This document shows positions 12,200 to 36,145 of a stretch of 64,000 nt of DNA, piece after piece. Every line of letters starts with the position of its first letter. The first letter of the stretch is position 1. The notes beneath the pieces are model-generated. The model was given only the letters and a program-made list of their open reading frames with translations. It made no database searches and had not been told where the DNA came from. The position numbers and the translations under genes are program-made. Source of the stretch: an uncultured archaeon (GTDB taxonomy: Archaea > Thermoplasmatota > Penumbrarchaeia > JASLWR01); the NCBI GenBank assembly GCA_964430885.1, contig CAYSHM010000014.1, forward strand, positions 12,307 through 76,306, written 5' to 3'.

Positions 12200-13348
12200 A
12201 TGAAAAAGTGGGTCCGACCAAATTCGAGGTTAGAGAATTTCTACAGCAATTATGATAATTTTATTCCGTCAGACGAGTTTTACAGGATGTACAATCTCGC
12301 AAGAACCGGAATAAAATGCAGGGATTTTGAAAATGGCGCCGAAGTTGCATCACTTACCGTACCCTTATCAACAATTTTCGATCATGGTGGGTTGATGTCT
12401 TTGAGCTCTTCCTCTAGATCATTCAAAAAATGTTTTGTCATAGGTAAAAAGGACCCTCGGATATCAGATATCCCCTGTGAAAGCAATTGGTCAAAGATAA
12501 TGCTTGCCTCCGGACTTGTTGGTTATGATGGAGGAGGTGCATTGGTCGATGGAAAGATAAAATGCATAGGCAATATGATAACCCCCGGAAGAAAATACAT
12601 ACTCAAAGCCCTCAAACAATTGGAATATAGAAGGGGGGCCCATACAAGGCATACCTCCGCAATGGCTTATTCTAAGAGATATAGAAACAATATAGTAATG
12701 ATAACCTCCCACCACGGACGATGCTGTATCCTATTGGACGGTAGGATCATCGGACAAATAATGGGTTTCAACGGACTAGGACGAAAGGCTTTCGTCAAAC
12801 CCTGCAATTCATTACACTTTCCAAAATTCGATGATGAATCTGAAAATAATAACAAGATGAAACTCGACCCCTCCCTAAAAGATCTTATTGAGAGAGCCCA
12901 CGGTATTGAAGACATCTTCGAAATAGCTTTGGGAAAGGTGAATATGGAACAGAATTCCATGATTAGAAGAAGAAGCACCATGGTAAATATTATCCAATCA
13001 AGATATTCATCCAATAATCTGAGAAAATGGATCGGTTTTTTCGGTTCAGAAAAACCAAATATTGATGAGCCAAAGATCCAAAACGCGGGTTTTTACGAAG
13101 GTGCAGTACCATATAGGTCCATGACCAATAATTTCATCAACCATGTTCAGCCTTATATTCAAATGAATATGAGTGAAAAGAAAAAGATGGAAATGGTAAT
13201 TGACCTGAGGGATAAGCAAACCCGGTTGGACCACAAGGAATTCCAAGGTACAAGAACCAAAACCTGTGTAAAAAGACCCACGGCAAAGGAATGTATCCTG
13301 AATGCTTTCAAAAAGAAGAAGAAATACCGGTCTCTTGACGATTACTGA
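12200..13348 (+). CDS. Divergent diadenylate cyclase (DisA_N/DAC) domain protein
   Basis: HGG...YDGGGALVDGKIKCIG...GAHTRHTSAMAYS...IVMITSHHGRCCILLDG follows the DAC motif order (DGA, GxRHxxA, vxSxxG). Confidence 0.65.
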   Translation: MKKWVRPNSRLENFYSNYDNFIPSDEFYRMYNLARTGIKCRDFENGAEVASLTVPLSTIFDHGGLMSLSSSSRSFKKCFVIGKKDPRISDIPCESNWSKIMLASGLVGYDGGGALVDGKIKCIGNMITPGRKYILKALKQLEYRRGAHTRHTSAMAYSKRYRNNIVMITSHHGRCCILLDGRIIGQIMGFNGLGRKAFVKPCNSLHFPKFDDESENNNKMKLDPSLKDLIERAHGIEDIFEIALGKVNMEQNSMIRRRSTMVNIIQSRYSSNNLRKWIGFFGSEKPNIDEPKIQNAGFYEGAVPYRSMTNNFINHVQPYIQMNMSEKKKMEMVIDLRDKQTRLDHKEFQGTRTKTCVKRPTAKECILNAFKKKKKYRSLDDY

Positions 13349-17715: not shown

Positions 17716-20700
17716 ATGTTACGGAAAGTAAAACCCTCCATTTCACTTCTGACTGCACTTCTTCTCTTTTTTCCTACAATGCTTACGGTAATCTCAACTA
17801 CAGAATTTCAAGAAGAATTCGATAAGAATACCGATTCCATGACAATTACCTTCTCGGAACCTGGCGAAGAGATTATAGACATGTCCATATATTCCAATTC
17901 AACTTACGATTATTACACATTCAGTGTACATGGTGCCCAGTACAATGGTCAATTCCCATCGAATATATCTATTGACATCGGCAACGACGGTAGTTGGGAA
18001 TGGAACTATGGAAAGGTTTTAGGGAACCTTCACCAGTTGGATTCTGGGTTAGATAGGTATACCTATGATTTCAGTGATGATATTAAACACCAAAATGATC
18101 AGTCAATTTCTATTCCTTTGGATGCGGACATCAGCTCAGCAAGCCTAACCCTATCCCCAAAGGTAACCACTACAGAAACCATGTTCATTGACATAGGCCA
18201 ATATAGGTCCATGGCCAGCACTGACGAAGAATTGTGGATAACTGCAGAAAACGGAGGTTTGATCAAGAGAGATATCATTTCGGGATACCAGCAAGTGTTC
18301 ACAAATGAAGATGGCCTGAACAATTCTGACATATCCTCAGTTGCTATGGACTCGGATTATGTCTATATTGGGTCCAGAACTAGCGGGGTATCCATTTATG
18401 ACCGGGAGGCCGATGATTTTTCTGAGTACCGATGGAATTCAGAAAATGATCTGGAATCGGATGTTATCCGTCATTTATATTCCAATGATGATAAGGTATT
18501 CATTGTTACTGATCTTGCAGTTCAGGTTTTTGACAAGTATGGTGAATTCGGTTCGTTCACTGAGAAATGGGATACCGGCAATGGACCTGATGATGAATTA
18601 ATAAATCTGAATATAAGGGATATTGAAACTACCGCTACCAAGATATATTTTGGCAGTATTTCAGGTCTTTCAATATATGATAGAAATACTGGTTTATGGG
18701 ACTATCTCAAAGTCCAAAATGGATTGAACTCCAATAACATCACTGATATGGTGAGAGATGGAGACCTGCTCTATATTGCAACTGATAATGGTATTAGCTG
18801 TTATGACTCAATAAATAAAGAAATTCTCTGGAAGAGTAAATCCCAGGAACTTACCGGAAAGATTGTCAAAGGACTTACCATTAATGATCAATCCTTGTTT
18901 GCATTGGTGGTTTCTACTGAATACAGCGGAAAGGATGCCATTTGTTCCTTGAACAAAAGCAATGGTAAAAGAAATGGCAACATTTGGTTCAGCGGAAATT
19001 CCATTTTGGAAGGAGAAATTATCTATGAAATAAATTATCACATGGATCACCTATTCATTACAACTCCAACGGGTTTCTTTGATATGGAATTCCCATTCGA
19101 GACATTGATGAAAATAAGCACAACCAATAATCAACCTCCATCTAATAATATCAGGGATTTCCTATATGATTTCAATGAAGAAATCCTATACGTGTCAACG
19201 GATTCTGGTGTGGGAAGATACGACCCTAATCAAAACAGGTTTTTAAATCCTTGGAATAAAATTGGCGGTCTCCCAAGTGATGACGTATATGAATTGGAAC
19301 TCATTGATGATGTGATTTATATCCAAACCAAGAGTTACGGTGTTGCCAGATGGAACATGGAGGAGAAAATTTGGCTTGAACCACTTGATAGATTCTCGGG
19401 ATTGCTATCATCCAGTATATCATCAATAAAAAGCCATGGTCATATGCTCTACATATCCAGCAATAAGGGGGTTGATGCTTACAATACTTCTTCAAATAGA
19501 ATTCAATCCTCATGGGACGCAAGAAATTATTTCAACACCACTACTAGTGATGGGCTCCAGATAAATGAAATATCCGCTGACAGCCAACGAGTGTTTTTTG
19601 CACTTTCTCCAGTATATTCCAATATTGGAGAAATGGAATCTGACGGTGGTTTATGGATTTATGATAAAAATGAACACGATTGGCAGCATTTCAGTAATTC
19701 AAGCGGAGTCAATATGACAAATTTATCATCCAGCTATCTGAAGAGCATATCCCACAGCGGTAATCATTTATTCTTAGGAACCGATAACGGAATAAATATA
19801 TTCGATGTGGAGACCAGTGAAGTTACTATCATTGATAAATCAACAAACAATGAATTCATGGGTCAAGAGATACGAGACCTATATTATGACGATACGGAGG
19901 AACCAAAGTTATACATCTCTATAGGCCCCATCATTAACAACACTGATATGAGTGAGCTGGGCGGCGGACTGATCGTAATGGACCCCGATACCGGTTCAAT
20001 ACTTGATTACTTCAATATTACTAATACAGATTCTTACATGAATACACTGGACATCCAGTCAATAGAAAGGGTTTCAGATATGCTTTATTTGGGCTCTTAT
20101 GTTAAAGGAATTTTAAGATTGGATTTGACAACTCTTGAATTTCTAGATCCTACACCTACAATAGGGGAAAAACAATATCCCCAGGGAGTGAGGTTGGATC
20201 TTGGGGATGACGGAATTACCGAAACTGAGATAAATGTATTTAAAAAACCTGTTGATATTGATATCACGGATGATCTCAATGAGATTCTCGAATTCAGTTC
20301 AAATATCTACCAGGATAATAGCGGGATCGAAAACGCCCTTATTCCAATCAACATATCCCTTAATCCGATGAGTGCTGGGGCAATAATTCTATCCTACATT
20401 AACATTAAATTCAACCATTATTACTCAATTCCAGACATCTCAGAATCTATCAATTCATACCTAGAGAATATCAATCAAACAAATCTAACCCAAGGTGAAT
20501 CTATTGACCGCGTTCCAATCCGAGTCAAATCAGACACTAGCGGTAAATTGGTATTATCCCAGCCAACCATTATCTTTAAATTCTCCAATCCGCCCTTGAT
20601 AAATATTATATCGCCCTTACCCAAGGACCTAGGGACATATTACTGGGATACAGTACCTATCACATTTGACGCATCAGGCACATATGATCCGGATGGAGAT

Positions 20701-22485
20701 TCAATTGAATTCCTTTGGACTTCCGATACCGACAAGTCATTTACCGGTTCCAGCGAGAAATTTACTTACCAATTACCATCCGGAAACCACCAGATAAGCT
20801 TAAATGTCACAGACCCAACAGGAAGATACACATTGCGAACATGGGATGTGAAGGTAAAGAAAAATATAGCTCCCATAGCTGTTATATCCGGCAGCGCAGT
20901 CAATGGAACTCAATTCTATGTAAAAGAAGAAATTCATTTCAGTGCAGGTGGAAGTTACGACGCAAATCCCGAGCAAGATCTGGATTATTCTTGGTATGCA
21001 AAGAAGATTGATGGGGGGACCAGCGAACTATTTTCAATAGGGAATAAAAAGGATTTTGATCATTCTTTCGATCTTTCTGGTACATACAATATCACTCTGG
21101 AAGTAAATGACGGATCACTGAAAGATGAAAGAAAGTTCGATATAGAAATATTATCACACGGCACCACCGAAAGAGAGCTCAGCCTTAACCTAGGAACTAT
21201 GAACGATGTATTTCTAGATTATCTTATCGTCCATTCAACCTATGAACCGTCCAGCGTTGAAATAACTGATCTGAATCTATTTGAGGAAGAATTACTGATT
21301 AACAGTATTCCGCCTAATCAAACTCATATAGGTGTTGGATTTTCAATTATTCAGAATACCAATAATACCGTTTACGAGGAAACAATAAATATCTCCTATA
21401 GTGGACAGGAAGAGTTCCTAGAGAACATTGATGAAAACTCAATAGCTCTGTATATTCTCAAGAATGAAAATGCTGAAGATGAAAGAAAAAGGGATGAAGA
21501 GAACTATAACTGGATAAAATGCCCAATCCTTGACCACAATACAGAGAAGGACTTTATTTATTCAGCCATACCATTGGGATTTACAGATATGTCTTCGAAA
21601 TTCATGCTGCTGTCTAATTCCTCCTATGGATGGACCAGGGGAGTCAAATTATCATTTGTAGAACCGACAGATCCACTCCAGGCCGATCCCGTTAATACTG
21701 TCATTACCTTGCGTTTTGACAAGCCTGTCCTGTCTAGCTACTTCACAGGCGATAAGGCGGATACAAATGTTGAGATACGGGATGAAAAAGGAAGTAAGGT
21801 CCCCATTTCCTATACCCCTAATTTTGATCCCATTGATCAGACTCTAACCATGAAAGTTGATGAATTTGAATATGATTCGGATTATACGATAATTCTGAAA
21901 CAGTTTATGGACCAGTACCGGAATATCGGAAATGACTATTCCTTACAGCTACATACGATTGAGGAGGACAAACCGGATGAGGGAAATAATTGGCTGTTAT
22001 ATGCAGTAATAGGCGGAGCGGTACTTCTAATTGGAGCAGTGGTCTTATTTATTGTGATCAAGAGAAGAGCACCCGATGAAGATTACGAGGAAGACGTTGT
22101 GGAATATTCCTGTCCAAGATGCGGTGTTGTGGTCCTCAGTGAAGAAAAGGAATGTCCAGAATGCGGTTACGAGCTTACAGAAAAAGAAAAAGGAGAGGAC
22201 ATAATAAAAGCAGAATTCATTGATTGTCCAGATTGCGGTAAAAGAATTGATGAAAAATCCCAAATATGCCCGTTCTGCTCCATTTCATTAGTGGAAGACA
22301 CTGAAGAAGAACTTGAAGAGGAACTGCTGTCCGATGAGATCATAGTCGATGCCGAAGAAGCGGACATCCTTTCAGCACAGGGCTCTGGCGGCGCTCCTAT
22401 GGACATGCCCTGTCCGACTTGCGGAGACATGGTGGAAATGGGTACAGTTGAATGTCCATCCTGCGGTGAGGATCAATTCACATAA
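17716..22485 (+). CDS. Giant cell-surface protein: signal peptide, beta-propeller repeats, PKD domains, Ig-like domain, TM anchor, cytoplasmic zinc ribbons
   Basis: N-terminal hydrophobic leader; repeats such as GLNSNNITDM, LYIATDNGIS, GLPSDDVYEL; PKD motifs ITFDASGTYDPDGD and FSAGGSYD; TM WLLYAVIGGAVLLIGAVVLFIVIKRR; three CxxC...CxxC ribbons. Confidence 0.75.
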   Translation: MLRKVKPSISLLTALLLFFPTMLTVISTTEFQEEFDKNTDSMTITFSEPGEEIIDMSIYSNSTYDYYTFSVHGAQYNGQFPSNISIDIGNDGSWEWNYGKVLGNLHQLDSGLDRYTYDFSDDIKHQNDQSISIPLDADISSASLTLSPKVTTTETMFIDIGQYRSMASTDEELWITAENGGLIKRDIISGYQQVFTNEDGLNNSDISSVAMDSDYVYIGSRTSGVSIYDREADDFSEYRWNSENDLESDVIRHLYSNDDKVFIVTDLAVQVFDKYGEFGSFTEKWDTGNGPDDELINLNIRDIETTATKIYFGSISGLSIYDRNTGLWDYLKVQNGLNSNNITDMVRDGDLLYIATDNGISCYDSINKEILWKSKSQELTGKIVKGLTINDQSLFALVVSTEYSGKDAICSLNKSNGKRNGNIWFSGNSILEGEIIYEINYHMDHLFITTPTGFFDMEFPFETLMKISTTNNQPPSNNIRDFLYDFNEEILYVSTDSGVGRYDPNQNRFLNPWNKIGGLPSDDVYELELIDDVIYIQTKSYGVARWNMEEKIWLEPLDRFSGLLSSSISSIKSHGHMLYISSNKGVDAYNTSSNRIQSSWDARNYFNTTTSDGLQINEISADSQRVFFALSPVYSNIGEMESDGGLWIYDKNEHDWQHFSNSSGVNMTNLSSSYLKSISHSGNHLFLGTDNGINIFDVETSEVTIIDKSTNNEFMGQEIRDLYYDDTEEPKLYISIGPIINNTDMSELGGGLIVMDPDTGSILDYFNITNTDSYMNTLDIQSIERVSDMLYLGSYVKGILRLDLTTLEFLDPTPTIGEKQYPQGVRLDLGDDGITETEINVFKKPVDIDITDDLNEILEFSSNIYQDNSGIENALIPINISLNPMSAGAIILSYINIKFNHYYSIPDISESINSYLENINQTNLTQGESIDRVPIRVKSDTSGKLVLSQPTIIFKFSNPPLINIISPLPKDLGTYYWDTVPITFDASGTYDPDGDSIEFLWTSDTDKSFTGSSEKFTYQLPSGNHQISLNVTDPTGRYTLRTWDVKVKKNIAPIAVISGSAVNGTQFYVKEEIHFSAGGSYDANPEQDLDYSWYAKKIDGGTSELFSIGNKKDFDHSFDLSGTYNITLEVNDGSLKDERKFDIEILSHGTTERELSLNLGTMNDVFLDYLIVHSTYEPSSVEITDLNLFEEELLINSIPPNQTHIGVGFSIIQNTNNTVYEETINISYSGQEEFLENIDENSIALYILKNENAEDERKRDEENYNWIKCPILDHNTEKDFIYSAIPLGFTDMSSKFMLLSNSSYGWTRGVKLSFVEPTDPLQADPVNTVITLRFDKPVLSSYFTGDKADTNVEIRDEKGSKVPISYTPNFDPIDQTLTMKVDEFEYDSDYTIILKQFMDQYRNIGNDYSLQLHTIEEDKPDEGNNWLLYAVIGGAVLLIGAVVLFIVIKRRAPDEDYEEDVVEYSCPRCGVVVLSEEKECPECGYELTEKEKGEDIIKAEFIDCPDCGKRIDEKSQICPFCSISLVEDTEEELEEELLSDEIIVDAEEADILSAQGSGGAPMDMPCPTCGDMVEMGTVECPSCGEDQFT

Positions 22486-24428: not shown

Positions 24429-27400
24429 GTGATGAATATGAAGAAGGTATTTCTAAGCCTGTTATTGACTGTGATTGTCGGAATTTTGATTGGATCCAAT
24501 ATGATATTGCCTAGCTCATGCGATGAAAAAGAGAACCAAACCATTGAGATTATGGATATTAACAACGAGCAGGACATATCAGCGGTTCAGGAGATCAGTT
24601 CCCAGGATGTTGAATCTCTAAATGGAGAAGAGGAAATTCCAATAGCTTATGATGAACTAGTTGCCCAAAAAGAAATCCCAAATAAAGACTCCTCGGAAGA
24701 ACAGGTCAAAGAAGAAACGCCCCTTAATGATCACACTGTATCTGAATATCCAATGGTAGATAATGAAATCAACTCAGAAGATGAGATGCGACCACATCCA
24801 CTCCTCAACCCAGATGGAAGTCTTGATGAAGTAGCATTTAACAACTGGAAAACGGAACTTCAGGAAAGAAATGATAAAATCAGCAATCCAGAACCAAAAC
24901 ATGATTCAAGATTTGTAGTAGTGTCCCAGACAGGGATTGTATTCAGTTATCCAAATGACTGGCCTCAGGTAATGTATCTTGAAGAATACACTATTGTAGG
25001 TGCGCTTTATGAGGATTCCAATGAGAACGGCCTTTGGAACACCCAGGAACCCGGAGTACCCAATGCCCCAGTCCATGTATACTGGGGAGCTGGAACTACA
25101 AGGGAAATAATGCCTGATGGAGAGGTTCCCCTTACCGGATCCGCTGCGGGCAATAGAGGAATTTTTAGAGCATCATGGAATATCACAGAAACACAGGAAG
25201 GGCCTCATAGACTGAATTTCACATATAACGGTGAATACACTTTCAACGGAAGCGCATTTTACGAACATAACCCCGGCACACAAGTACCCGGAGAAGCTTG
25301 GTTGGCTAGGGCCGCATCAACGTGGCCCCCTGCACCTCAGGAAGATTTTGAGGCGGAAATTTGGCACCAGGTTTCAATCGATGTGGATATTGGATCACCG
25401 GATATTGATGATATCTATGTTGGTGACCAACTTACAGTGAATGGAAATCTTCAGGATAGAGATCTAGGATGGGGACTCAGCACAAGGGCAGTACATATCA
25501 AATTCGACGCTAACTATGTAACACCGGATGACAGCCAGGTGCCTTATGAAATGACTTCATCAACTGGAACATTCTCATTTCAATGGACGATTCCAGCAGT
25601 TATCTCACCTGGCATTCATACCCTATCAATAGAATATAAATGGGATTTTATCGACCCCGATTCAGGGGAATACATTAATGATTACTATGTATCTAACTCA
25701 TCATCCATCCAATTTGGAATACATCGTAATCTTCATTTTGAGGTTGAAGACAAAGTGGTGTACAGGACAGACACTATTAACATATCCGGACGTATTCTAG
25801 ACGACGTTGGTGAAGGGCCGGACACAATAATTGGAAATACCACGTTCCGATATGAGATTATGATCGAATGGGGCGATCCAAGTGATCCATACTACGAATC
25901 AGGTGACACCAATCCTGACCTTTTAATAAGAACTGGCTCACAGAGCGGCGACAGCTATCTCTATTCATCAGGTGAATTCAGCACTGACTTCAGAATTAAA
26001 GAAAGCCAGCCCTTGACCCTGGTCAAGGTCACATTCAATTTCAGATTGGCACGTGACAATCCTTTAGATTATATGTACTACGGAGAAGTATCGGACTATG
26101 TCATGTATACGGTTAAAGCTAGGACAGTTATTGAACTGAAGGTTGTTGACGATGAGGACGGCGAAGAACTGACCGAACTCACAAGGACCGGCCCCGCTAG
26201 CACATTTCAGATCGTGGCAACTCTATTGGATAAAGATCTTCTGGAAAAAGCTGGTCAGATAAGTCCCATTCAGGGTGCTACTATTAGCCTAGATGGAACC
26301 ATCGGAGGTAAAGGACTAACCGGATCAGGCGCCACTATCGGCAGTTACACTACTGACGCTTTGGGTAGAATTTCAGTCAGTCAGAAATTGGACATTTTTG
26401 ATCCTACAGGTCCTCTTCTCCTCAGAGCCATATTCAATGGAAATCAGTGGCATGAAGGATTTGACACTGATGGTTATGATGAAGAAGGAAACTATTACGG
26501 ATTGGTTGTGGATATCACAGCAACCACAACTATAGAAATTGAACCTGGTTCGGGTATCAAAGGCGAGAATGTAGTGATTAAGGGTAAGCTCAAAGACGAT
26601 ACTGGCCTTGAGGGCGTGGCTAATGAGACCATCAATTTTTTCTGGAAGAAAACAAGATTTGCTGATGACGGTTCATCCATCGGTTCAGTAAAAACAGATC
26701 AGTATGGAAAATTCATCTTTACAGGATTCCAGATCCCTAAGACACAATTCGTGGGTGTTGCCTATGTGAAAGGTAAGTTCACCGGGTCCAGCAAGGTTCT
26801 CCATACCAAGGATAAAAAAATGCACTACACATTGGATGATGCATATGCGGCCTCCGAATCCAGCGAGGTGAAATTCAATGTATCGGCATATATCCATATT
26901 TCAATCGACCCAAGTATACTGAACGGTTCTACCTATACTAGAGGAGAAACTATTACAATAAGCGGTGGAATAGAAGAGATGTTCCAGGGCAAGGTTCAAT
27001 ATCCCAAAACCTATGTCAAGAACATCAGAATAAATGCATATTTCCAGAGCGAAGGCGGCAACTCATCACAGAAATTCATGCTGTCCGGGACATCATCAGA
27101 TAATTACGGGCAATACGACCTGGGTGCAACAGTACCTGAGAGCCTCTCACCGGGTGTTTATCTTCTGAAAATGCACTTCCAATCCAATGAATCAGAGGAA
27201 AACAAGAAATATCTTACAAAATCTGAATATCTCGATTCAAGGAGAATATTTGTCACCACTGATACAGAGATCGATGTTTTGGAACATCCTCCCGATATTG
27301 ATCCTGAGTTAAGCAATGGTATTGACATCGGTTACACCAAATCAGATAAAGAGGAGAGCGGTTACCGGTTTGTGGTACTTTTGAGGGAGAAAAACACTCT

Positions 27401-28271
27401 TTCAGTAGAACCAGTACCAATATCAAATCAAAAGATTACCCTTACTATAAAACTCAGGGATGAGAACGGTGTAAATTATATCAATGAGACTACAAGAACA
27501 ACCGATGACAACGGAAAGGCCATATTCAATTTCACCCATTTCCAGCACCGTGATGGAGCCCGAATCACCATTGAAGGTCTAAGTGCCGATGGTAATTGGT
27601 ATCTTTCGTTCCCTGGCAAAAATATACCCCAAACCATTGAGGGGAAAACTTCCAAGGGCTGGATAGGTAGTACCTATCCCGCAGACCTTCAAAGAAATCA
27701 GGAGAAGATACATTTCGAAGAGAAGCCCATAGTTTATCCACCACCTGAATTCCCCGAATTGGATTGGTGGTTGGAAAACTCGGCCGCCCTGGTAGGATTG
27801 ATATTATTCATACTGCTTCTCATCGCAGGTATGATACTGTTAGCCCTTTACATCAGAAAGCGCAGAAGGATCGCAGGAATCAAACGTATCATCAAGAGAG
27901 CTGCCGATCAGCTTGTTGCTGGCAACGAATATACTGCAGTTATCTTCAAGTCATACCAGAAATTAGGTTATCATCTAAGGAAATATGGTTATCTTAGACG
28001 TGAAGCAGAAACATTCCGTGAATTTGAAGATGCTGTGAGAGAAGCCTTACCCATTGATAAAGCCAGCCTTAATAGGTTCCTCACCATACTCGAGGAAGCC
28101 CGTTACAGCTCCCATGAAATTGGAGAGAGACAGAGGGATGGTGCAGTTACTGAACTGAGGAATATTGAGAGCTCTCTCAGCTCCATACAGCTGGATGACG
28201 ATGAGGCTATGAAGAAACTCGAAGAGACCGAAGAAGAGTTCGTGGAAACTGAGATCCTTCTGAATAAATAA
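24429..28271 (+). CDS. Large membrane-anchored Ig-repeat surface protein with C-terminal DUF4129 domain
   Basis: Signal peptide; SdrD-B-like GALYEDSNENGLWNTQEPGV; repeated GxLxDxxG/TDxxGxF Ig units; TM; DUF4129-like YQKL...RREAETFREF...LEEARYS. Confidence 0.75.
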   Translation: MMNMKKVFLSLLLTVIVGILIGSNMILPSSCDEKENQTIEIMDINNEQDISAVQEISSQDVESLNGEEEIPIAYDELVAQKEIPNKDSSEEQVKEETPLNDHTVSEYPMVDNEINSEDEMRPHPLLNPDGSLDEVAFNNWKTELQERNDKISNPEPKHDSRFVVVSQTGIVFSYPNDWPQVMYLEEYTIVGALYEDSNENGLWNTQEPGVPNAPVHVYWGAGTTREIMPDGEVPLTGSAAGNRGIFRASWNITETQEGPHRLNFTYNGEYTFNGSAFYEHNPGTQVPGEAWLARAASTWPPAPQEDFEAEIWHQVSIDVDIGSPDIDDIYVGDQLTVNGNLQDRDLGWGLSTRAVHIKFDANYVTPDDSQVPYEMTSSTGTFSFQWTIPAVISPGIHTLSIEYKWDFIDPDSGEYINDYYVSNSSSIQFGIHRNLHFEVEDKVVYRTDTINISGRILDDVGEGPDTIIGNTTFRYEIMIEWGDPSDPYYESGDTNPDLLIRTGSQSGDSYLYSSGEFSTDFRIKESQPLTLVKVTFNFRLARDNPLDYMYYGEVSDYVMYTVKARTVIELKVVDDEDGEELTELTRTGPASTFQIVATLLDKDLLEKAGQISPIQGATISLDGTIGGKGLTGSGATIGSYTTDALGRISVSQKLDIFDPTGPLLLRAIFNGNQWHEGFDTDGYDEEGNYYGLVVDITATTTIEIEPGSGIKGENVVIKGKLKDDTGLEGVANETINFFWKKTRFADDGSSIGSVKTDQYGKFIFTGFQIPKTQFVGVAYVKGKFTGSSKVLHTKDKKMHYTLDDAYAASESSEVKFNVSAYIHISIDPSILNGSTYTRGETITISGGIEEMFQGKVQYPKTYVKNIRINAYFQSEGGNSSQKFMLSGTSSDNYGQYDLGATVPESLSPGVYLLKMHFQSNESEENKKYLTKSEYLDSRRIFVTTDTEIDVLEHPPDIDPELSNGIDIGYTKSDKEESGYRFVVLLREKNTLSVEPVPISNQKITLTIKLRDENGVNYINETTRTTDDNGKAIFNFTHFQHRDGARITIEGLSADGNWYLSFPGKNIPQTIEGKTSKGWIGSTYPADLQRNQEKIHFEEKPIVYPPPEFPELDWWLENSAALVGLILFILLLIAGMILLALYIRKRRRIAGIKRIIKRAADQLVAGNEYTAVIFKSYQKLGYHLRKYGYLRREAETFREFEDAVREALPIDKASLNRFLTILEEARYSSHEIGERQRDGAVTELRNIESSLSSIQLDDDEAMKKLEETEEEFVETEILLNK

Positions 28272-29919: not shown

Positions 29920-30645
29920 TTGACTAAATTACATCTTGATGACGACTTCATCAATAAAATAAATCAAAAATATTCCCGTCCATTTATACAAATCAATGCT
30001 GCTTCATCAATGGATGGAAAGATTGCCGGATTAAACGGAACAAGATTAGAAATCTCCCCAAAGGAAGATTTTGAACGGGTTCACGAACTCCGTTCCTCCC
30101 TTGATTCCATATTGGTTGGGATCGATACAATAATCAATGATGACCCTCGGCTGATGGTCAAAGAACTGTTTACCGATAATAGGCCCTTAAAACATCCAAC
30201 AAGATTGATTTTGGATTCCAAAGGCAGAATTGACTCGGGTAAAAGACTTTTTAATTCCTCGACTCCCACAATTATTATTACTTCATTTGATGCTTTGAAC
30301 AACCTAAGGGATAGATTCAGATCCAAGGGGAATGTTGAAATCCAAGGTGTCCACAGCAATAAATCCGGTTTATTGGAAGTTGAAAAACTTTTCCCTTATC
30401 TACTCGAAAGGGAAATTCGATCGATCCTTGTTGAAGGTGGAAGTAAGGTAATTTCATATTTTATCAGAAATGGGTTGTTTGACGTATTAACCATCTTCAT
30501 CAGCTTCTTCTTTATCGGAGGTAGTGATGCGCCTCCTCTCATAGGAGGGAAATCTGCGTCTATTTTAAAAGATACCATCCGTTTAGGTAAACCCGATATA
30601 GAAATTTTGGACGAAGGATTATTGATAAGCTATACAAATCTCTAA
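29920..30645 (+). CDS. RibD C-terminal-type reductase (2,5-diamino-6-ribosylamino-4(3H)-pyrimidinone 5'-phosphate reductase)
   Basis: NAASSMDGKIA, VHELRSSLDSILVGIDTIINDDPRL, RLILDSKGR, ILVEGG. Confidence 0.88.
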   Translation: MTKLHLDDDFINKINQKYSRPFIQINAASSMDGKIAGLNGTRLEISPKEDFERVHELRSSLDSILVGIDTIINDDPRLMVKELFTDNRPLKHPTRLILDSKGRIDSGKRLFNSSTPTIIITSFDALNNLRDRFRSKGNVEIQGVHSNKSGLLEVEKLFPYLLEREIRSILVEGGSKVISYFIRNGLFDVLTIFISFFFIGGSDAPPLIGGKSASILKDTIRLGKPDIEILDEGLLISYTNL

Positions 30646-30832
30646 TTCAATTATCGATTCAATTTTTTCCATCCCTTTCTAGTTTGAATGAGCCATCCAT
30701 AATCATCAAACTATTCTCCCCTCTTTCATTTCATTAAAGGTCATTTTATATAAGGTATTGAATTATTGTTCTTGCTACCTTTATTAACAATTTAACCTGA
30801 TAATTATTGAATACCTAAACTGGGATGAGTTA

Positions 30833-31312
30833 ATGGGAAATGAGGAATTGACTTTCTTATGCGACAGGATGCTGGGGAAATTGTGCAGATGGCTCAGGTT
30901 TTTAGGATTCGATTCGTCATTTACCCCCGATATTAAAGATAGATTAATTATACAAATTGCCCATAGGGAGAATAGAATACTACTGACCCGTGATAAAGGA
31001 ATATCCAGAATGAATCTCATGAATATTGGATTCATGTTGATCCATGCTGTAGATCTGGAATCTCAACTTGCAGAAGTTAACAAAAAGTATGATCTCATTC
31101 AAAATGCGGTTAAAAATGATACGATCCTCAATAGATGTTCTATCTGCAACAATATCCTTATAGAAGCGGAAAAAAAAGTTGTGAAAAAGGGGGTGCCAGA
31201 AGGGATTTTTTCGGTAGAAAACAATTTCTGGCATTGTGGCAAATGCAATAAGTATTATTGGCCAGGAAGTCATTATGAGGAAATACTTAAAAAAATAGAA
31301 ACATTGAAATAA
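30833..31312 (+). CDS. Mut7-C RNase (PIN-like) domain protein with zinc ribbon
   Basis: FLCDRMLGKLCRWLRFLGFD, ILLTRD, RCSICN, CGKCNKYYWPGSHY. Confidence 0.9.
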   Translation: MGNEELTFLCDRMLGKLCRWLRFLGFDSSFTPDIKDRLIIQIAHRENRILLTRDKGISRMNLMNIGFMLIHAVDLESQLAEVNKKYDLIQNAVKNDTILNRCSICNNILIEAEKKVVKKGVPEGIFSVENNFWHCGKCNKYYWPGSHYEEILKKIETLK

Positions 31313-31444
31313 ATCCATGACATTCAATTAAGTCATTATTAATCATTAAAAATTATAGGGAAAAAAAGTATAATATACTTTGATTTGACCTAATCATTCA
31401 GTTCTATTCGAATCAGATATTATTTATTATTATTATTATGGGAA

Positions 31445-32626
31445 GTGTTGGTTTTGGCTGACGATTACTATGGAATACTGGAAATAGATAGGGATGCCTC
31501 GCAGGCTGAAGTAAAGAAAGCATATAGGAGATTAGCTCGAAAATATCATCCGGATGCAAATCCTGATGACCCTTCAGCAGCCGATAAATTCCGTCTTCTA
31601 AAAGAAGCATTCGATATATTATCCGATCCTCTTGAGAGGGATAAATACGACCATCAAGGTCCAGGGGGAGATGACTTCGATAATGATTATGATATGAATA
31701 ATCAGAGTCAGGCTTCATCTTATGGAACGCCGCCGCCTCCATCAAGACCATCTAACGGTTATTATTCCAATGCTGACCAATACAATCAACCACCTAGCAC
31801 CCCTGATCCTAGGCCGCCTACTCCGCACCACCAAGATACTATTGGGATGCAGGCGGGGGCAGACCTGAAATATGACCTAGAGATAACATTTGAGGAAAGT
31901 ATATACGGACTTGAAACAGAACTAGAAGTACCCATAATGGCCGAATGTAATGTATGCCAGGGAATTGGAATCAGACCTGGAGCGCCTCAAGTCCCTTGTG
32001 CGGTTTGCAATGGAATGGGTGAAGTGAGCCAAAATATGTATGGCAGGGGTGGAAGAAATCTTATTTGCGATACCTGTCAAGGTACGGGAATCAGTCCCGA
32101 ATATCTTTGCATGAACTGCCAAGGGAACGGGCGTGTTCGATCTGTCAGGAATGTATATGTCAAGGTTCCACCAGGGGTCGAAAATGGGGCCAGATTGAGA
32201 ATAAGGAATATGGGAGAACCGGGAATTAGAGGGGGGCCTGCAGGCGATTTATATGTTATGATTTACATTCTTGAGCACGACATCTTTGAAAGACATGGTA
32301 ACGAGATACTCTGTGAAGCCACAATCTCATTACTTCAAGCTTCATTAGGAGCGGAAATCGAGGTTCCGACGATAGAAGGAAAAGCGGTTATAAAGATCCC
32401 ACCAGGGACACAGACTGGGACTATCTTCAGATTGAGGGGGAAAGGGGTCCCTGATGTGAGAACAAAAGAAAGAGGGGACCAGCATGTCAAAATTACGGTC
32501 ATTACTCCTACCAATTTGAACAAGAATGCAAAAAATCTGCTCTGGAAATTCGGGAAAGAGATCGGAGAGGACATGGATTCGATCCTAATGCGCAGGGGTA
32601 AATCCAAACCTGCAAGAAAGAGATGA
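31445..32626 (+). CDS. dnaJ: Molecular chaperone DnaJ (class A)
   Basis: J domain DYYGIL...YHPD, four CxxCxGxG repeats, C-terminal GDLYV and IPPGTQTG motifs. Confidence 0.93.
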   Translation: MLVLADDYYGILEIDRDASQAEVKKAYRRLARKYHPDANPDDPSAADKFRLLKEAFDILSDPLERDKYDHQGPGGDDFDNDYDMNNQSQASSYGTPPPPSRPSNGYYSNADQYNQPPSTPDPRPPTPHHQDTIGMQAGADLKYDLEITFEESIYGLETELEVPIMAECNVCQGIGIRPGAPQVPCAVCNGMGEVSQNMYGRGGRNLICDTCQGTGISPEYLCMNCQGNGRVRSVRNVYVKVPPGVENGARLRIRNMGEPGIRGGPAGDLYVMIYILEHDIFERHGNEILCEATISLLQASLGAEIEVPTIEGKAVIKIPPGTQTGTIFRLRGKGVPDVRTKERGDQHVKITVITPTNLNKNAKNLLWKFGKEIGEDMDSILMRRGKSKPARKR

Positions 32627-32700
32627 ATAAAAAGAACTTTCTTTTCAATCTACACTATTATCACAACTAAGTATACTAGCTTTCGTGTGAGGAATAATAT

Positions 32701-33210
32701 ATGGCAAAACTTCCAAAAGATATTCTGAATAAAAGGGTTTCACAAGAGATTGCATTAGCAAAGAGAAAACTGCTGCATATAATCGCAATTGAGGAGGGTG
32801 TGATCGAAGATTTTCCTGTTTCTTTGATGGTTACTCTCATTGATGTCGCAGGCCCGGTCTGGAGAGGAGAAGAATTATCTCATAAAAAAACCCATCAATT
32901 TGAGATAACCATTACCGAGAGCTATCCTTATGAGAAACCTATTGTGAAGTGGAACAGTGAAATATTCCATCCAAATATCAAACTTCCAGAGGATGGAGGT
33001 GATGTCTGTACTAGACTGCTTGACGGTTGGGGATTTCATTCCAATATTCTAGCTTTCATTAAGGGTGTCGAATCCCTCCTTACCAATCCCAATCCTCGAT
33101 CTCCCTGGGGCACTGATTCCTGCACATCTGCAGCCCTTTTCTTCAATACACATGATTATGAACCCCCTGAAGGTAGGATTGATGACATGGGTCCAAAAAT
33201 TGTAAAATAG
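32701..33210 (+). CDS. Ubiquitin-conjugating enzyme E2 (UBC-fold) protein
   Basis: KRVSQEI helix 1, YPYEKP, IFHPNI, GGDVC (catalytic Cys codon 33007-33009), W, SLLTNPNPRSP; collinear with eukaryotic UBE2D-type E2. Confidence 0.88.
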   Translation: MAKLPKDILNKRVSQEIALAKRKLLHIIAIEEGVIEDFPVSLMVTLIDVAGPVWRGEELSHKKTHQFEITITESYPYEKPIVKWNSEIFHPNIKLPEDGGDVCTRLLDGWGFHSNILAFIKGVESLLTNPNPRSPWGTDSCTSAALFFNTHDYEPPEGRIDDMGPKIVK

Positions 33211-33342
33211 AAACCCGTGAAAATCTTAGAAGCTGTTGTGCTGTTAGAAGTTGGATCCTGAATCTTTAAAGGGTAAATGTAACAGACAGAATGGATCAGA
33301 CGGGAAATTGGAAATATTGTATGTTGTGAGTTAATCCACTAT

Positions 33343-34212
33343 CTACATTTTTCTAGCTTTTTGAACCTGTAGAAGATCCTCAGTGGATAATTTCCCGCCT
33401 TCCTTAAACTGCTGAAATATATTCTCTGCCAAACCCTTATCCTTTTTCTTCTTTATCTTCTCAGAAGCCTTCTTCTTCTTACGGATCAATTTACCTAATA
33501 TCTTATCTAAATCACGAATGTGGATGATGTATTGAGTATGAGCCCTGTGTTCAACATCAGCCTTTGTTTTATATTCTACAAATTCCTGCTGTTTCTCATC
33601 ACCCAGTTTTCGATATTTCCGAATATTCTTCTTTGATTCTATCATTTCTTCATGATATTGCTGGGCTTTTTGGGCATACTCATTGACCTTCTGATGTTCA
33701 TCCTCGGCATTCTGATGGACCTCTTTTTTCCTGAGAATGACCTCACGAGTTTTTTCATTCTCTTCAAATTCCCTCTCTCTCTTCCTTATTTTCTCCATCA
33801 GTTCTTTTATTTTATCAATAAGTTCTCTCTCTTTTTTTGAGTCCATCGCTTCGGTCTGCTGTTTCATCTCCAGCTCTTTCACTTCATTACGGAGAGCACC
33901 CATAGAACGACCCATTTTAGGTCTTAATTTGGCCTGCAGTTCTACGATTTTCAGATGAAGTTCCCTGGCTTCCTTATTATATTGGTTCCTTAACTTCTTA
34001 GATTCAAAAACCTTTACGTTCAAATCATCCCTCATCTTCTTGAGATCTCTGCTTCTAGAAAGGTTTTCTCTGACCAGGCTGTTATAATGATCTCGTTCCT
34101 TGGCTTTTATTCTGGTATTCTTGTTTAGATCATTTCTTTTTTGCCGATGTTCTTTAGCCTTATCAGACAAAAATCGTCTTTTCTCTTGTAATCGCTCAGT
34201 AATCTTTCTCAT
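33343..34212 (-). CDS. Archaeal long coiled-coil protein (COG1340-like)
   Basis: KRNDLN/RDDLN/RNQYN heptad repeats, LEMKQQT, C-terminal FKEGGKLSTEDLLQVQK signature. Confidence 0.85.
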   Translation of the reverse strand: MRKITERLQEKRRFLSDKAKEHRQKRNDLNKNTRIKAKERDHYNSLVRENLSRSRDLKKMRDDLNVKVFESKKLRNQYNKEARELHLKIVELQAKLRPKMGRSMGALRNEVKELEMKQQTEAMDSKKERELIDKIKELMEKIRKREREFEENEKTREVILRKKEVHQNAEDEHQKVNEYAQKAQQYHEEMIESKKNIRKYRKLGDEKQQEFVEYKTKADVEHRAHTQYIIHIRDLDKILGKLIRKKKKASEKIKKKKDKGLAENIFQQFKEGGKLSTEDLLQVQKARKM

Positions 34213-34424
34213 CGTATCCTGCCACTAATTCAATATTTTCCCAAAAAGGACTTTCATACATCTTACTCTTAAAAACATATGACCAATGCTTTTATTTAAG
34301 CTACACTTTACTTGCTTACAAATAAACACTCACCAAATCCAAAAGGACTGAAGCGGTAGCGTGAACACTAAAAAACTCTTTAAATCTTTCTATGCTGATT
34401 GATAATAATGGAGATTGAAAAGCT

Positions 34425-35834
34425 TCAATATGAAATATTTCCCTGAAAAGCCTCTTCTATAAGGCGCTCGTATTCTTCTGAAGTGATCTCCCCTTTCTCG
34501 AATTTATCCGCCAACATTTCAAAATAATGCTTCAATTTTTCATCTTCATCCTCAAATTGATAATTATCGTAGGATTCCTCTGAGATGTCCTTAGATTCTT
34601 CGACATTGTCGTCATCATCTAGGGGTACTGCTACAACCTCTTTATCAAACCCTTCGGTTCCCCCGTAATCCAATATTTCTGCTTTGGTTTCAGCCATAGA
34701 CTCCCACTCATCATCTCCAGTATACCTTAGTTCCTCAATGTCTTCTTCGGTGATCTCATGGCCTTCATAGATGTCAACTTCTTCGATCTCCTCTTCCTGA
34801 TCTGCATGAAGATAACTAAGCTGATCATGGGGTGAAACCTCAGAGAAATCATCCTCTTCCAGGTTAGTCAAATCCCGTCTTCTATCGACCTGAGGAGTTC
34901 TAGGGAATTTATCCCTTTTATGTCTAAGATAACAATTTGCGCACATAGCTGGTTCTGAACGTCTTCTCTCACCCCTGAAATCGATCTCGCAAGTGGCACA
35001 GAATAGATTTTCACATTCGTTGCAGCGAATACTCCTATTATCTTTTGATATTGGGTTTCTGCAGTAAGGACATAAATGCGACTCCCTGGCAGGTGTGAAA
35101 TCCAACTCGTCCTCACCATCCGCCTGTGCAAACATGCTCTGTATGTATTTCCGCCTTTCCTGGTACCTCTTATATTCCTCAATAAACTCTTTCTCGGTAG
35201 GAGTTCTTCTGATTGTCGTCGGTCTCAACCCCAGAGGTCCCATTTTCCTCTCTACTATGAAATCTTCCCGATCCTGGGCATATTCAGGAAAATCTCCAAA
35301 CTGTTCTTCAGAATATTCTGTTTGCTGTTTGACCTGCATTTGCTTAGTTTCCTGCTGCGCCTGCTGCTGAGGTTGTGGTTGTTGGGGTTGTTCCTGAATC
35401 TGATTTTGAATCTGCTGGTTTAAGAATGGCGCCTGCTGCTGAGGCTTGGGTTGTTCATTTTGCTGTGGCTGATAACCGCCGTAATTATATACTGAATGGC
35501 TAGAATGATCCACCGCGGGAGAATGATCATATTTATCATCCGCCTCCTCTCGGCATGCCTCTTTGTTTCGAAGGGCCGATTCATTCATAGGGTTTATCTT
35601 CAGGGCCTTATTGAAACATTTCAATGCAGACTCATAATCCTTCATCTTGCTGTAAGCAAGGCCCATATTATTCCAAGCCCCATCATGAGAGGGTCGGTAT
35701 TCCAGAGCCTTCATATAATAAGCAATTGCTGCCGGATAGTTCTTCCGCCTGAACTCATAATTGCCCTTTTCTTTGAACTTCTCTGCCTGGGTTGTTGAGT
35801 CCATATCCCTAGCATAACGACTATCTGCTCTCAT
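34425..35834 (-). CDS. TPR repeats, Q-rich linker, 8-Cys zinc finger, acidic region and SHOCT-like C-terminus
   Basis: TPRs AEKFKEKGN...AWNNMGLAY...KALKINP; CPYC-x12-CNEC-x4-CATC-x15-CANC; terminal LADKFEKGEITSEEYE. Confidence 0.8.
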   Translation of the reverse strand: MRADSRYARDMDSTTQAEKFKEKGNYEFRRKNYPAAIAYYMKALEYRPSHDGAWNNMGLAYSKMKDYESALKCFNKALKINPMNESALRNKEACREEADDKYDHSPAVDHSSHSVYNYGGYQPQQNEQPKPQQQAPFLNQQIQNQIQEQPQQPQPQQQAQQETKQMQVKQQTEYSEEQFGDFPEYAQDREDFIVERKMGPLGLRPTTIRRTPTEKEFIEEYKRYQERRKYIQSMFAQADGEDELDFTPARESHLCPYCRNPISKDNRSIRCNECENLFCATCEIDFRGERRRSEPAMCANCYLRHKRDKFPRTPQVDRRRDLTNLEEDDFSEVSPHDQLSYLHADQEEEIEEVDIYEGHEITEEDIEELRYTGDDEWESMAETKAEILDYGGTEGFDKEVVAVPLDDDDNVEESKDISEESYDNYQFEDEDEKLKHYFEMLADKFEKGEITSEEYERLIEEAFQGNISY

Positions 35835-36145
35835 GATTCACCACATCGTTATTGTTTTACTTGATACTTAACCTGAAACAACTAGTTCATATTTAATCTT
35901 ACCCTATCTCAATTGGTCAATAATGAACATTTTGGAAGATATTTTACCTAAATCAATCAAATTCTTCATTGATTTGTTATCCCTTGAACTGATAAGAAGA
36001 AAGATGATTTCCCATATTTTGTTCATTACAACAATTAAATAAGGAATCCAACCGTATATAAAATTTTTCAGCATATATAAATTGTAAAAAACTATAAATC
36101 GAGGGATATAAATAGTGGTTCAGGTTTTCTAATGCAGGTGATCCA

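Follow-up and report, generated by a model that had tools for sequence, protein, structure and literature searches.

We analyzed a 64,000-nucleotide window (positions 12,307 to 76,306 of contig CAYSHM010000014.1, assembly GCA_964430885.1; hereafter contig C14) from the genome of a marine Thermoplasmatota archaeon, which comprises 3.13 Mb in 44 contigs and is 91.6% complete, and focused on one gene in it, designated E2-A. This gene encodes a genuine eukaryote-type ubiquitin-conjugating (UBC) E2, as judged by profile, by sequence matches in the PDB, and by predicted fold. We consider it probable, at about 0.7, that E2-A is catalytically competent and that, together with a second paralog, it serves a eukaryote-like system for ubiquitin-type conjugation whose genes are dispersed, the other parts being encoded on further contigs of the same genome.

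The Pfam profile UQ_con (PF00179), proposed as a check when the gene was first noted, matched E2-A at 52 bits (E = 7.5e-14), above the gathering cut-off of 27 bits, with an alignment that covered residues 61–141 only (profile positions 43–122 of 140). No family was matched in a search of E2-A against the NCBIfam profiles. Comparison with PDB sequences using phmmer returned 262 distinct chains at E ≤ 1, with Rad6/UBE2A as the best match (approximately 1e-10), and nearly all of the best 60 of these chains were named as E2s for ubiquitin, SUMO, or NEDD8. The AlphaFold2 model of E2-A, built from 32 sequences, showed a mean pLDDT of 89.1 and a pTM of 0.84, and its predicted elements (a helix at residues 6–23, four strands, and helices at residues 116–128 and 139–150) followed the order expected for a UBC fold. 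A Foldseek search of the PDB with this model gave 308 matches at E ≤ 1e-3; those listed among the best 50 were all E2s, including Ubc9, UBE2S, UBE2K, Rad6, and UbcH5, and the E2 matches listed had TM-scores of 0.53–0.65 at 15–26% identity to E2-A. By every sequence and fold criterion, E2-A belongs to the UBC family.

The earlier note had described a set of UBC motifs collinear with those of eukaryotic E2s, and all of them were present, with the HPN triad at exactly the reported nucleotides (Table 1). The YPYEKP loop is one that we take to be the counterpart of the E3-contact loop in canonical eukaryotic E2s. Downstream of the catalytic Cys103 lay Trp110 and the LLTNPNPRSP stretch (residues 126–135). 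The short insertion between HPN and Cys was borne out as a spacing three residues longer than that of UBE2A in the phmmer alignment; in the same alignment, the DSC segment containing the second Cys, Cys141, was a short insertion opposite a gap in UBE2A. Twenty-two residues, including H90, P91, N92, C103, and C141, were invariant in the family alignment, and E2-A kept all of them. Variation of the catalytic Cys among orthologs had been raised as a possible refutation; Cys103 was invariant in the 32 sequences aligned. The dN/dS ratio between the E2-A orthologs of two genomes of the same family (G001 and G003) was 0.026, which corresponds to strong purifying selection, with dS saturated in the other five of the six ortholog pairs, including those between the E2-A of the window and its three orthologs.

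Searches of C14 yielded no match to ThiF, JAB, a GG-ended ubiquitin-like protein (Ubl), or RING-like fingers, so that the statement that nothing cognate is adjacent to E2-A holds locally. The candidate partners were found on other contigs. The second UBC paralog, E2-B, was followed directly on its 3' side by a gene whose 510-aa product contains a pair of JAB (JAMM) domains and, toward its C-terminus, two hydrophobic or transmembrane segments, and the other neighbors of E2-B were the housekeeping genes for tRNA-intron endonuclease or primase and adenosine kinase. On contig C1, the gene for an 80-aa Ubl was directly followed by that for a 417-aa JAB (JAMM) protein; the genome thus contains three JAB domains in two proteins (C1 and C18). 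Among PDB sequences, the JAMM matched yeast and human Rpn11 best (approximately 1e-16, best 8e-17), followed by Caldiarchaeum Rpn11 (PDB ID: 6fjv; 2e-12) and CSN5. The AlphaFold2 model of the Ubl (pLDDT 88.3) showed a beta-grasp fold, with Foldseek TM-scores of 0.79–0.87 to Hub1, SUMO1, ISG15, NEDD8, ubiquitin, and Caldiarchaeum ubiquitin, the last of which (6fno_D) ranked fourth with a query TM-score of 0.86. In seven Ubl homologs, LIPDPxGG was invariant and followed by 0–8 variable residues, a signature of a precursor trimmed after Gly-Gly.

The E1 on contig C17 is free-standing and scored better against UBA2, UBA3, and UBA1 (approximately 1e-26) than against MoeB (4e-17) and ThiF (2e-15); its RFSC loop was common to the E1 that heads an operon in a related genome (G005, see below). 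The parts of the system are thus dispersed over at least four contigs (C14, C18, C1, and C17) and do not form one operon in this genome. The description of E2-A as a stand-alone E2 was accurate for C14, on which neither a cognate Ubl nor an E1 is encoded; because its likely Ubl, E1, and JAMMs are encoded elsewhere in the genome, E2-A is no orphan, and "stand-alone" applies only locally. Separately, a 427-aa stop-to-stop open reading frame (ORF) on contig C3 (G000:C3:80902-82182, plus strand) showed a Ubl-like N-terminus without a GG end, with 30% identity to the Ubl over residues 4–54 (E = 3.4e-4), followed by Cys-pair motifs resembling zinc ribbons; similar weak matches were found only in G001 and G003.

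Genomic contexts in relatives connected these genes. We retrieved 24 of 31 UBC places, in 20 of which ORF calling found an E2 of this family; among these 20 loci, the neighbor was a Ubl in five, a JAMM in six, and an E1 in three. On contig C462 of G005, genes for an E1, a Ubl, an E2, and a protein with two JAMM domains and transmembrane segments followed one another in this order on one strand, the E1 being 58% identical to the C17 E1 and the Ubl 82% identical to the C1 Ubl. On contig C3 of G040, one strand encoded a 971-aa RING-like protein, an E1, a 3155-aa RING-like protein, a Ubl, an E2, and a JAMM, with the RING-like finger located C-terminally in both the 971-aa and 3155-aa proteins. Fusions were also found: a Ubl-E2 fusion joined at ..PDPTGG (P0045) and two E2-JAMM fusions (P0035 and P0058). 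The earlier note had called the modifier and pathway of E2-A unknown. This is not supported, given a GG-ended Ubl, a eukaryote-like E1, and Rpn11-like JAMMs in the genome that stand in one operon with the E2 in relatives.

The same genes also co-occurred across genomes. Strong Ubl matches (E ≤ 1.7e-24) were found in 11 of the 41 related genomes. The set of genomes with E1 orthologs (E ≤ 8.9e-76, identity of 45% or more) was identical to this one, and all 11 contained UQ_con. In four other genomes (G004, G027, G012, and G039), a divergent E2 lay beside its own E1 without this Ubl. These co-occurrences are descriptive and carry no statistic, since the genomes are kin and not independent.

We examined the distribution of the E2 family in several collections. 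A search of 5.8 billion clustered proteins retained 34 of 70 candidate relatives at E ≤ 1e-3, all with PF00179. Six of the 34 had been named E2 or ubiquitin-protein ligase by JGI, which agrees with the suggestion that similar proteins were already annotated in Thermoplasmatota, as does an E2 clade in the accessible text of a preprint (see below). HMMER searches over 1.84 billion representatives gave 686 matches with a threshold of 1e-3, of which 53 remained when it was set to 1e-10 and 15 when it was set to 1e-30. A contig search with E2-A hit a single locus (L007), at 35% identity, in a Thermoplasmatota metagenome-assembled genome, and another named relative was a "Thermoplasmata archaeon" protein in the same 90% cluster as P0010; the nearest named relatives are thus consistent with the non-Asgard archaeal host proposed earlier. 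UQ_con was present in 15 of 41 close relative genomes, in none of 24 in family f7, and, over the phylum as a whole, in 95 of the 401 genomes sampled, with no match in 14 control genomes, indicating that a UBC gene is common in the phylum. In family f11, whose genomes are small and near-complete, 29 of 48 carried a UBC gene.

In a maximum-likelihood tree of 55 E2 family members, from which the fragments P0019, P0027, and P0033 were left out, E2-A fell in a clade of 10 with the copies of G001–G003 (support 100/99), and the sister of this clade consisted of family f8 copies located downstream of gyrB/gyrA (93/83). E2-B formed its own clade of family f1 (99/98), which grouped with another f8 copy and P0009–P0018 (87/82). 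The duplication is therefore older than the split between f1 and f8, and both paralogs are conserved within families. The tree and the accompanying searches also contained several unusual UBC proteins. P0051, P0065, P0068, and L007:302-715 were approximately 230 aa in length, with a Ubl-like N-terminus and a UBC domain with HPN and no Cys at the catalytic position (UEV-like). P0066 contained a tandem double UBC without the catalytic Cys, and G005 had seven UQ_con matches, with UBC domains within ORFs of 552, 692, and 1057 aa. A divergent second type of E2 (L025, L028, and L031, from G004, G012, and G027) branched at a great distance from the main family, showed an alignment gap of approximately 20 residues in the N-terminal region, and always lay beside its own ThiF E1; the N-terminal extension of approximately 60 residues in the E1 of G012 may be a fused Ubl.

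The UEV-like relatives bear on the question of whether E2-A is itself charged. E2-A could have a regulatory or scaffold function and seldom, if ever, be charged; it might then assist E2-B in the manner of a UEV, or bind the Ubl. Cys-less relatives in the family provide a precedent, and two paralogs per genome invite specialization. We regard this role as improbable, since E2-A has kept HPN, Cys103, and all other family-invariant residues under strong purifying selection.

A different tag is also conceivable. Contig C8 encodes a 244-aa MoeB-like E1 (ThiF, E = 9e-70) beside an 81-aa ThiS-family protein ending in AGG, which constitutes a classical SAMP/MoaD pair, and E2-A is unlinked in this genome to the Ubl ending in PDPEGG; E2-A might accordingly serve the AGG-ended tag, activated by the adjacent MoeB/UbaA-like E1. 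The SAMP/UbaA system and the one proposed here share a beta-grasp tag with a C-terminal GG, an E1 of the ThiF family, and trimming by a JAMM. In Haloferax, however, conjugation of SAMPs is not known to need an E2, and according to the accessible text of a review (PMC11354881) it needs none. Moreover, genomes with the eukaryote-like E1 and the PDPEGG Ubl also have the E2, and among the loci and proteins examined E2s are fused or adjacent to this Ubl and not to ThiS. In contrast to SAMP/UbaA, which operates without E2 or E3 as far as the accessible part of the same review describes it (PMC11354881), the C17 E1 is closer to UBA2/UBA3 than to MoeB. SAMP/MoaD with UbaA, the pairing put forward in the earlier note, is the less likely partner set for E2-A, and there is little reason to favor it.

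Such an E2 might likewise act in antiviral defense, as part of a conjugation system like bacterial Bil/Bub or CBASS-Cap2. The Bil operon encodes BilA (Ubl), BilB (E2), BilC (JAMM), and BilD (E1). The G005-type operon of the relatives has this same four-gene content, as given in the accessible text of the review (PMC11354881). BilB, however, has a CEHH motif rather than HPN, again as far as that text goes (PMC11354881), and in contrast to Bil the genes here lie amid housekeeping loci (gyrase, primase, tRNA endonuclease, and dnaJ) and are associated with RING-like fingers. The paralogs are conserved within families, and the partners are most similar to Rpn11 and UBA2/UBA3. With PADLOC, the sole match of E2-A reached only E = 0.0087 (12.7 bits) and E2-B had none, in a database (PADLOC-DB v2.0.0, 2023) that may lack Bil models. 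A defense role for E2-A is unlikely, and we give this kind of system very little credence.

The integrity of the contig was assessed at the E2-A locus. The GC content around the gene (0.38–0.40) was similar to that of its flanks. Logan contigs from two runs of marine metagenomes (40 and 41 kb in length) covered positions 30500–36000 of the window with zero differences, although the assembly itself may derive from these runs, which so do not count as independent support. No RNA data set was listed for positions 31400–34300. Two further samples of this study yielded small contigs that bridged the border between dnaJ and E2-A (32604–32786) and the 3' border of E2-A (33130–33312 and 33277–33468). 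The gene order radical-SAM, RibD_C, Mut7-C, DnaJ, (urocanase), E2 was kept in all three same-family genomes (G001, G002, and G003). The contig is non-chimeric at this locus, contrary to a possibility raised in the earlier note. That E2-A is an artefact of eukaryotic contamination or of a chimeric join, as its eukaryotic best matches in the PDB might suggest, is scarcely credible, given its identity of only about 20–26% to those E2s, the contigs from other samples across both borders, the conserved synteny, the uniform GC content, and the frequency of UQ_con in the phylum.

Besides the Ubl, E1, E2s, and JAMMs, the genome encodes at least 13 RING-like fingers, most of which belong to large membrane proteins (1000–1600 aa), in whose cytoplasmic tails they lie. 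The fingers follow a C4HC3 pattern, C-x2-C-x(11-13)-[C/H]-x-C-G-x3-H-x2-C-x(6-8)-C-x2-C, in which one ligand position was H in one of eight copies; C4HC3 is the arrangement given for prokaryotic RINGs in the accessible text of the review (PMC11354881). The RINGv profile (PF12906) found no match in this 91.6%-complete genome. Five of 10 finger proteins were 1480–1630 aa in length, with an N-terminal hydrophobic segment, BNR, PKD, or laminin-G domains, and one strong transmembrane segment, and the finger was located approximately 120–260 residues beyond it. Two short finger proteins had an N-terminal transmembrane segment, and one finger protein was a CDP-alcohol phosphatidyltransferase with a C-terminal finger. 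A profile built from eight of the 13 fingers, those at retrieved loci, gave 14 matches in this genome and up to 32 in relatives. Over the 11 genomes containing Ubl, E1, and E2, copy numbers were 14, 19, 27, 24, 32, 4, 3, 8, 8, 2, and 6, against 0–1 in each of the other 30.

We also modeled E2-A bound to a single finger in the presence of two zinc ions. The score of this predicted complex, 0.46, fell in the class "weak support", and the best of three controls scored 0.01; the mark was passed by 58 of 80 solved complexes and two of 110 mismatched pairs, and at scores of 0.60 or below by seven of those 80 and by both of the passing mismatches. Contact agreement between runs was at least 93%, and the partner pLDDT was at least 69. 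Because E2-RING complexes have already been solved, this pass may reflect likeness to known structures.

Table 1. Positions of E2-A and its motifs in the window and of the other proposed components in the genome (G000)
Feature	Location	Strand	Description
E2-A, UBC-fold ubiquitin-conjugating enzyme	32701..33210	+	ATG-started ORF, 169 aa plus stop
YPYEKP loop, residues 75-80	32923..32940	+	Y75 and P80 invariant, P76 and K79 at least 90% conserved (32 sequences)
HPN triad, H90 P91 N92	32968..32976	+	Invariant in 32-sequence alignment; aligns with UBE2A HPN
Catalytic Cys103 in GGDVC	33007..33009	+	Invariant (32 sequences); aligns with UBE2A active-site Cys
NPNPRSP loop, residues 129-135	33085..33105	+	P130, N131, and P135 invariant; aligns with UBE2A PNPxSP
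Second Cys, Cys141, in DSC(T)	33121..33123	+	Invariant (32 sequences); start of helix after NPNP loop
E2-B, second UBC paralog, 170 aa	G000:C18:30909-31418		UQ_con
Ubl, 80 aa, ends ...LIPDPEGGF	G000:C1:24332-24571		GG-X precursor form
E1, free-standing, 286 aa	G000:C17:12139-12996		ThiF family
RING-like finger proteins	G000:C24, C4, C3, C5, C1, C25		e.g. L059, L060, L061, L042, L047

By analogy with the reconstituted Caldiarchaeum system, we infer the following cascade. The Rpn11-like JAMM encoded beside the Ubl would trim the 80-aa precursor after Gly-Gly, and the 286-aa E1 of C17 would adenylate the trimmed Ubl and probably carry it on the Cys of its RFSC loop. Cys103 of E2-A, or else E2-B, would then receive the Ubl in a thioester linkage, and the E2 would transfer it to lysines, probably helped by the RING-like C4HC3 fingers in the cytoplasmic tails of large surface proteins. 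The membrane-anchored JAMMs may undo the modification. Given the age of the duplication, E2-A and E2-B probably differ in their targets or in the E3s with which they work.

Several observations weigh against this assignment. In family f1, the E2 adjacent to the JAMM is E2-B, with E2-A located among housekeeping genes, and nothing ties E2-A, as distinct from E2-B, to the Ubl. The Ubl scored 18.2 bits with the Pfam ubiquitin profile, below the cut-off of 25.4, and the C17 E1 has neither a ubiquitin-fold domain nor a separate Cys domain, which bears on recruitment of the E2. The genome is 91.6% complete. As for the fingers, all 13 zf-RING_2 matches in the genome were below the curated cut-off, as were the 12 Prok-RING_1 matches except that of one two-finger protein (29.2 bits versus 29.1), and both profiles also matched below cut-off in two to three of the 14 control genomes. 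Three points speak against reading the fingers as dedicated E3s. The finger profile, being built from the genome's own fingers, favors close kin, which are not independent; it gave 18 matches outside those listed; and of the 24 f7 genomes, all without an E2 match, 16 have kept one finger protein of approximately 1450–1550 aa, so that the finger is not strictly dependent on an E2.

Judged from sequence, the proposed system appears to match those of the Caldiarchaeum and Asgard kind in its parts and not in its layout. Caldiarchaeum subterraneum reportedly has a ubiquitylation system, ascribed to work by Nunoura in 2011, of ubiquitin, E1, E2, small RING proteins, and CsRpn11. According to the accessible text of later studies (Fuchs 2018, PMC6043591; Hennell James 2017, PMC5654768), the precursor of CsUb is cleaved behind its Gly-Gly by CsRpn11, and the E1, E2, and RING proteins conjugate CsUb. 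A GG-ended precursor, an Rpn11-like JAMM, a short E1, and an E2 with HPN and Cys in a UBC fold are shared by both, as possibly are fingers of the RING type, and the mature tag, which would end in Gly79 here after the proposed trimming, ends in Gly78 in CsUb according to the same text (PMC6043591). In contrast to Caldiarchaeum, the organism belongs to a different phylum, its genes are located on at least four contigs, it has two E2 paralogs, and its JAMMs are in tandem with C-terminal transmembrane segments. The fingers differ as well, being located mostly on the tails of BNR/PKD/laminin-G proteins of 1000–1600 aa, whereas the RINGs of Caldiarchaeum are small soluble proteins.

Lu et al. (10.1101/2023.07.25.550441) collected 240 non-Asgard archaeal PF00179 proteins from InterPro and, in the accessible text of their preprint, named a "Ca. 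Thermoplasmatota E2" clade, which forms a deep branch of the archaeal E2/UEV clade. Our placement of E2-A among archaeal E2s relies on their tree. These proteins and E2-A have in common a UBC-core PF00179 domain in a non-eukaryote; the accessible text of Lu et al. treats the Thermoplasmatota E2s as tree members only and contains no partners, operons, paralogs, or RING expansion. RING and UCH genes have been reported in a Marine Group II genome by Grau-Bove et al. With eukaryotic class I E2s (Rad6/UBE2A, UbcH5, and Ubc9), E2-A shares the fold and the collinear HPN, Cys, Trp, and PNPxSP, and it differs from them in its longer HPN-Cys spacing, its extra invariant Cys141, and its low identity of about 20–26%. 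Nothing else on a ubiquitin system in Thermoplasmatota emerged from literature searches, which did not extend to supplements and subscription journals; the operon, the two E2 paralogs, the membrane anchoring of the JAMMs, and the RING expansion were all undescribed there. The Thermoplasmatota E2 itself is thus already in print, and the layout with two E2s, expanded RING-like fingers, and a membrane-centered arrangement is undescribed in the literature searched, as far as its accessible text goes.

The immediate neighborhood of E2-A consisted of housekeeping genes, namely dnaJ and, in relatives, urocanase, and is uninformative on its targets. A functional link between dnaJ and E2-A was considered and rejected; urocanase intervenes between the two genes in G001, G002, and G003, and the sister f8 copies follow gyrB/gyrA. 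Two genes upstream of E2-A, a 159-aa protein with a Mut7-C RNase domain was encoded (30833–31312, plus strand) in a position kept in G001–G003; it was rejected as a Ub-Mut7C fusion, as Mut7-C fills residues 8–154 and leaves no Ub-like N-terminus. Convergent with E2-A was a gene for a 289-aa Lys/Glu-rich DUF7121 protein (33343–34212, minus strand; E = 3e-38). The next gene, two genes from E2-A and on the opposite strand (34425–35834, minus), was considered as a candidate local E3. In its 469-aa product, TPR repeats at the N-terminus are joined through a long linker, acidic and rich in Q, to a finger with eight Cys, C-x2-C-x11-C-x2-C-x4-C-x2-C-x14-C-x2-C. Its IBR and B-box matches were weak (E approximately 0.006–0.009) and below the cut-offs, its hhalign probability with the RING-like profile was 20%, and it was absent beside E2-A in G001 and G003. 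Farther upstream lay two very long ORFs on the plus strand, 17716–22485 (1589 aa) and 24429–28271 (1280 aa); none of the RING-like matches of the genome was on their contig.

A broader arrangement can be envisaged, tentatively, from the fingers and the JAMMs. Many Thermoplasmatota may possess a membrane-centered, fully eukaryote-like system of E1, E2, RING, and Rpn11 in which dozens of receptor-like surface proteins, each with a signal peptide, a BNR/PKD/laminin-G ectodomain, one transmembrane segment, and a RING-like finger in the cytoplasm, act as transmembrane E3s with two specialized E2s (E2-A being one), opposed by membrane-anchored tandem JAMMs; we hold this to be possible but doubtful. 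If true, it would mean that transmembrane RING ligases have expanded beyond Asgard archaea and eukaryotes, serving the turnover of surface proteins or outside-in signaling. With more than one E2, numerous transmembrane proteins that bear RING-like fingers, and Rpn11-like proteases bound to the membrane, the toolkit resembles the ubiquitylation of membrane proteins in eukaryotes.

According to the accessible literature, reconstitution of eukaryote-type ubiquitylation outside eukaryotes has so far been achieved for Caldiarchaeum only, and for Asgard archaea to a degree. The complete toolkit now appears in a third archaeal phylum, with a UBC gene in nearly a quarter of the genomes sampled (95 of 401). 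For annotation, E2-A should not be counted as an orphan. If the proposed cascade works, E2 and RING genes would be weaker as markers specific to Asgard archaea and eukaryotes, and Thermoplasmatota would offer a second, independent view of ubiquitin-type tagging as it was before eukaryotes.

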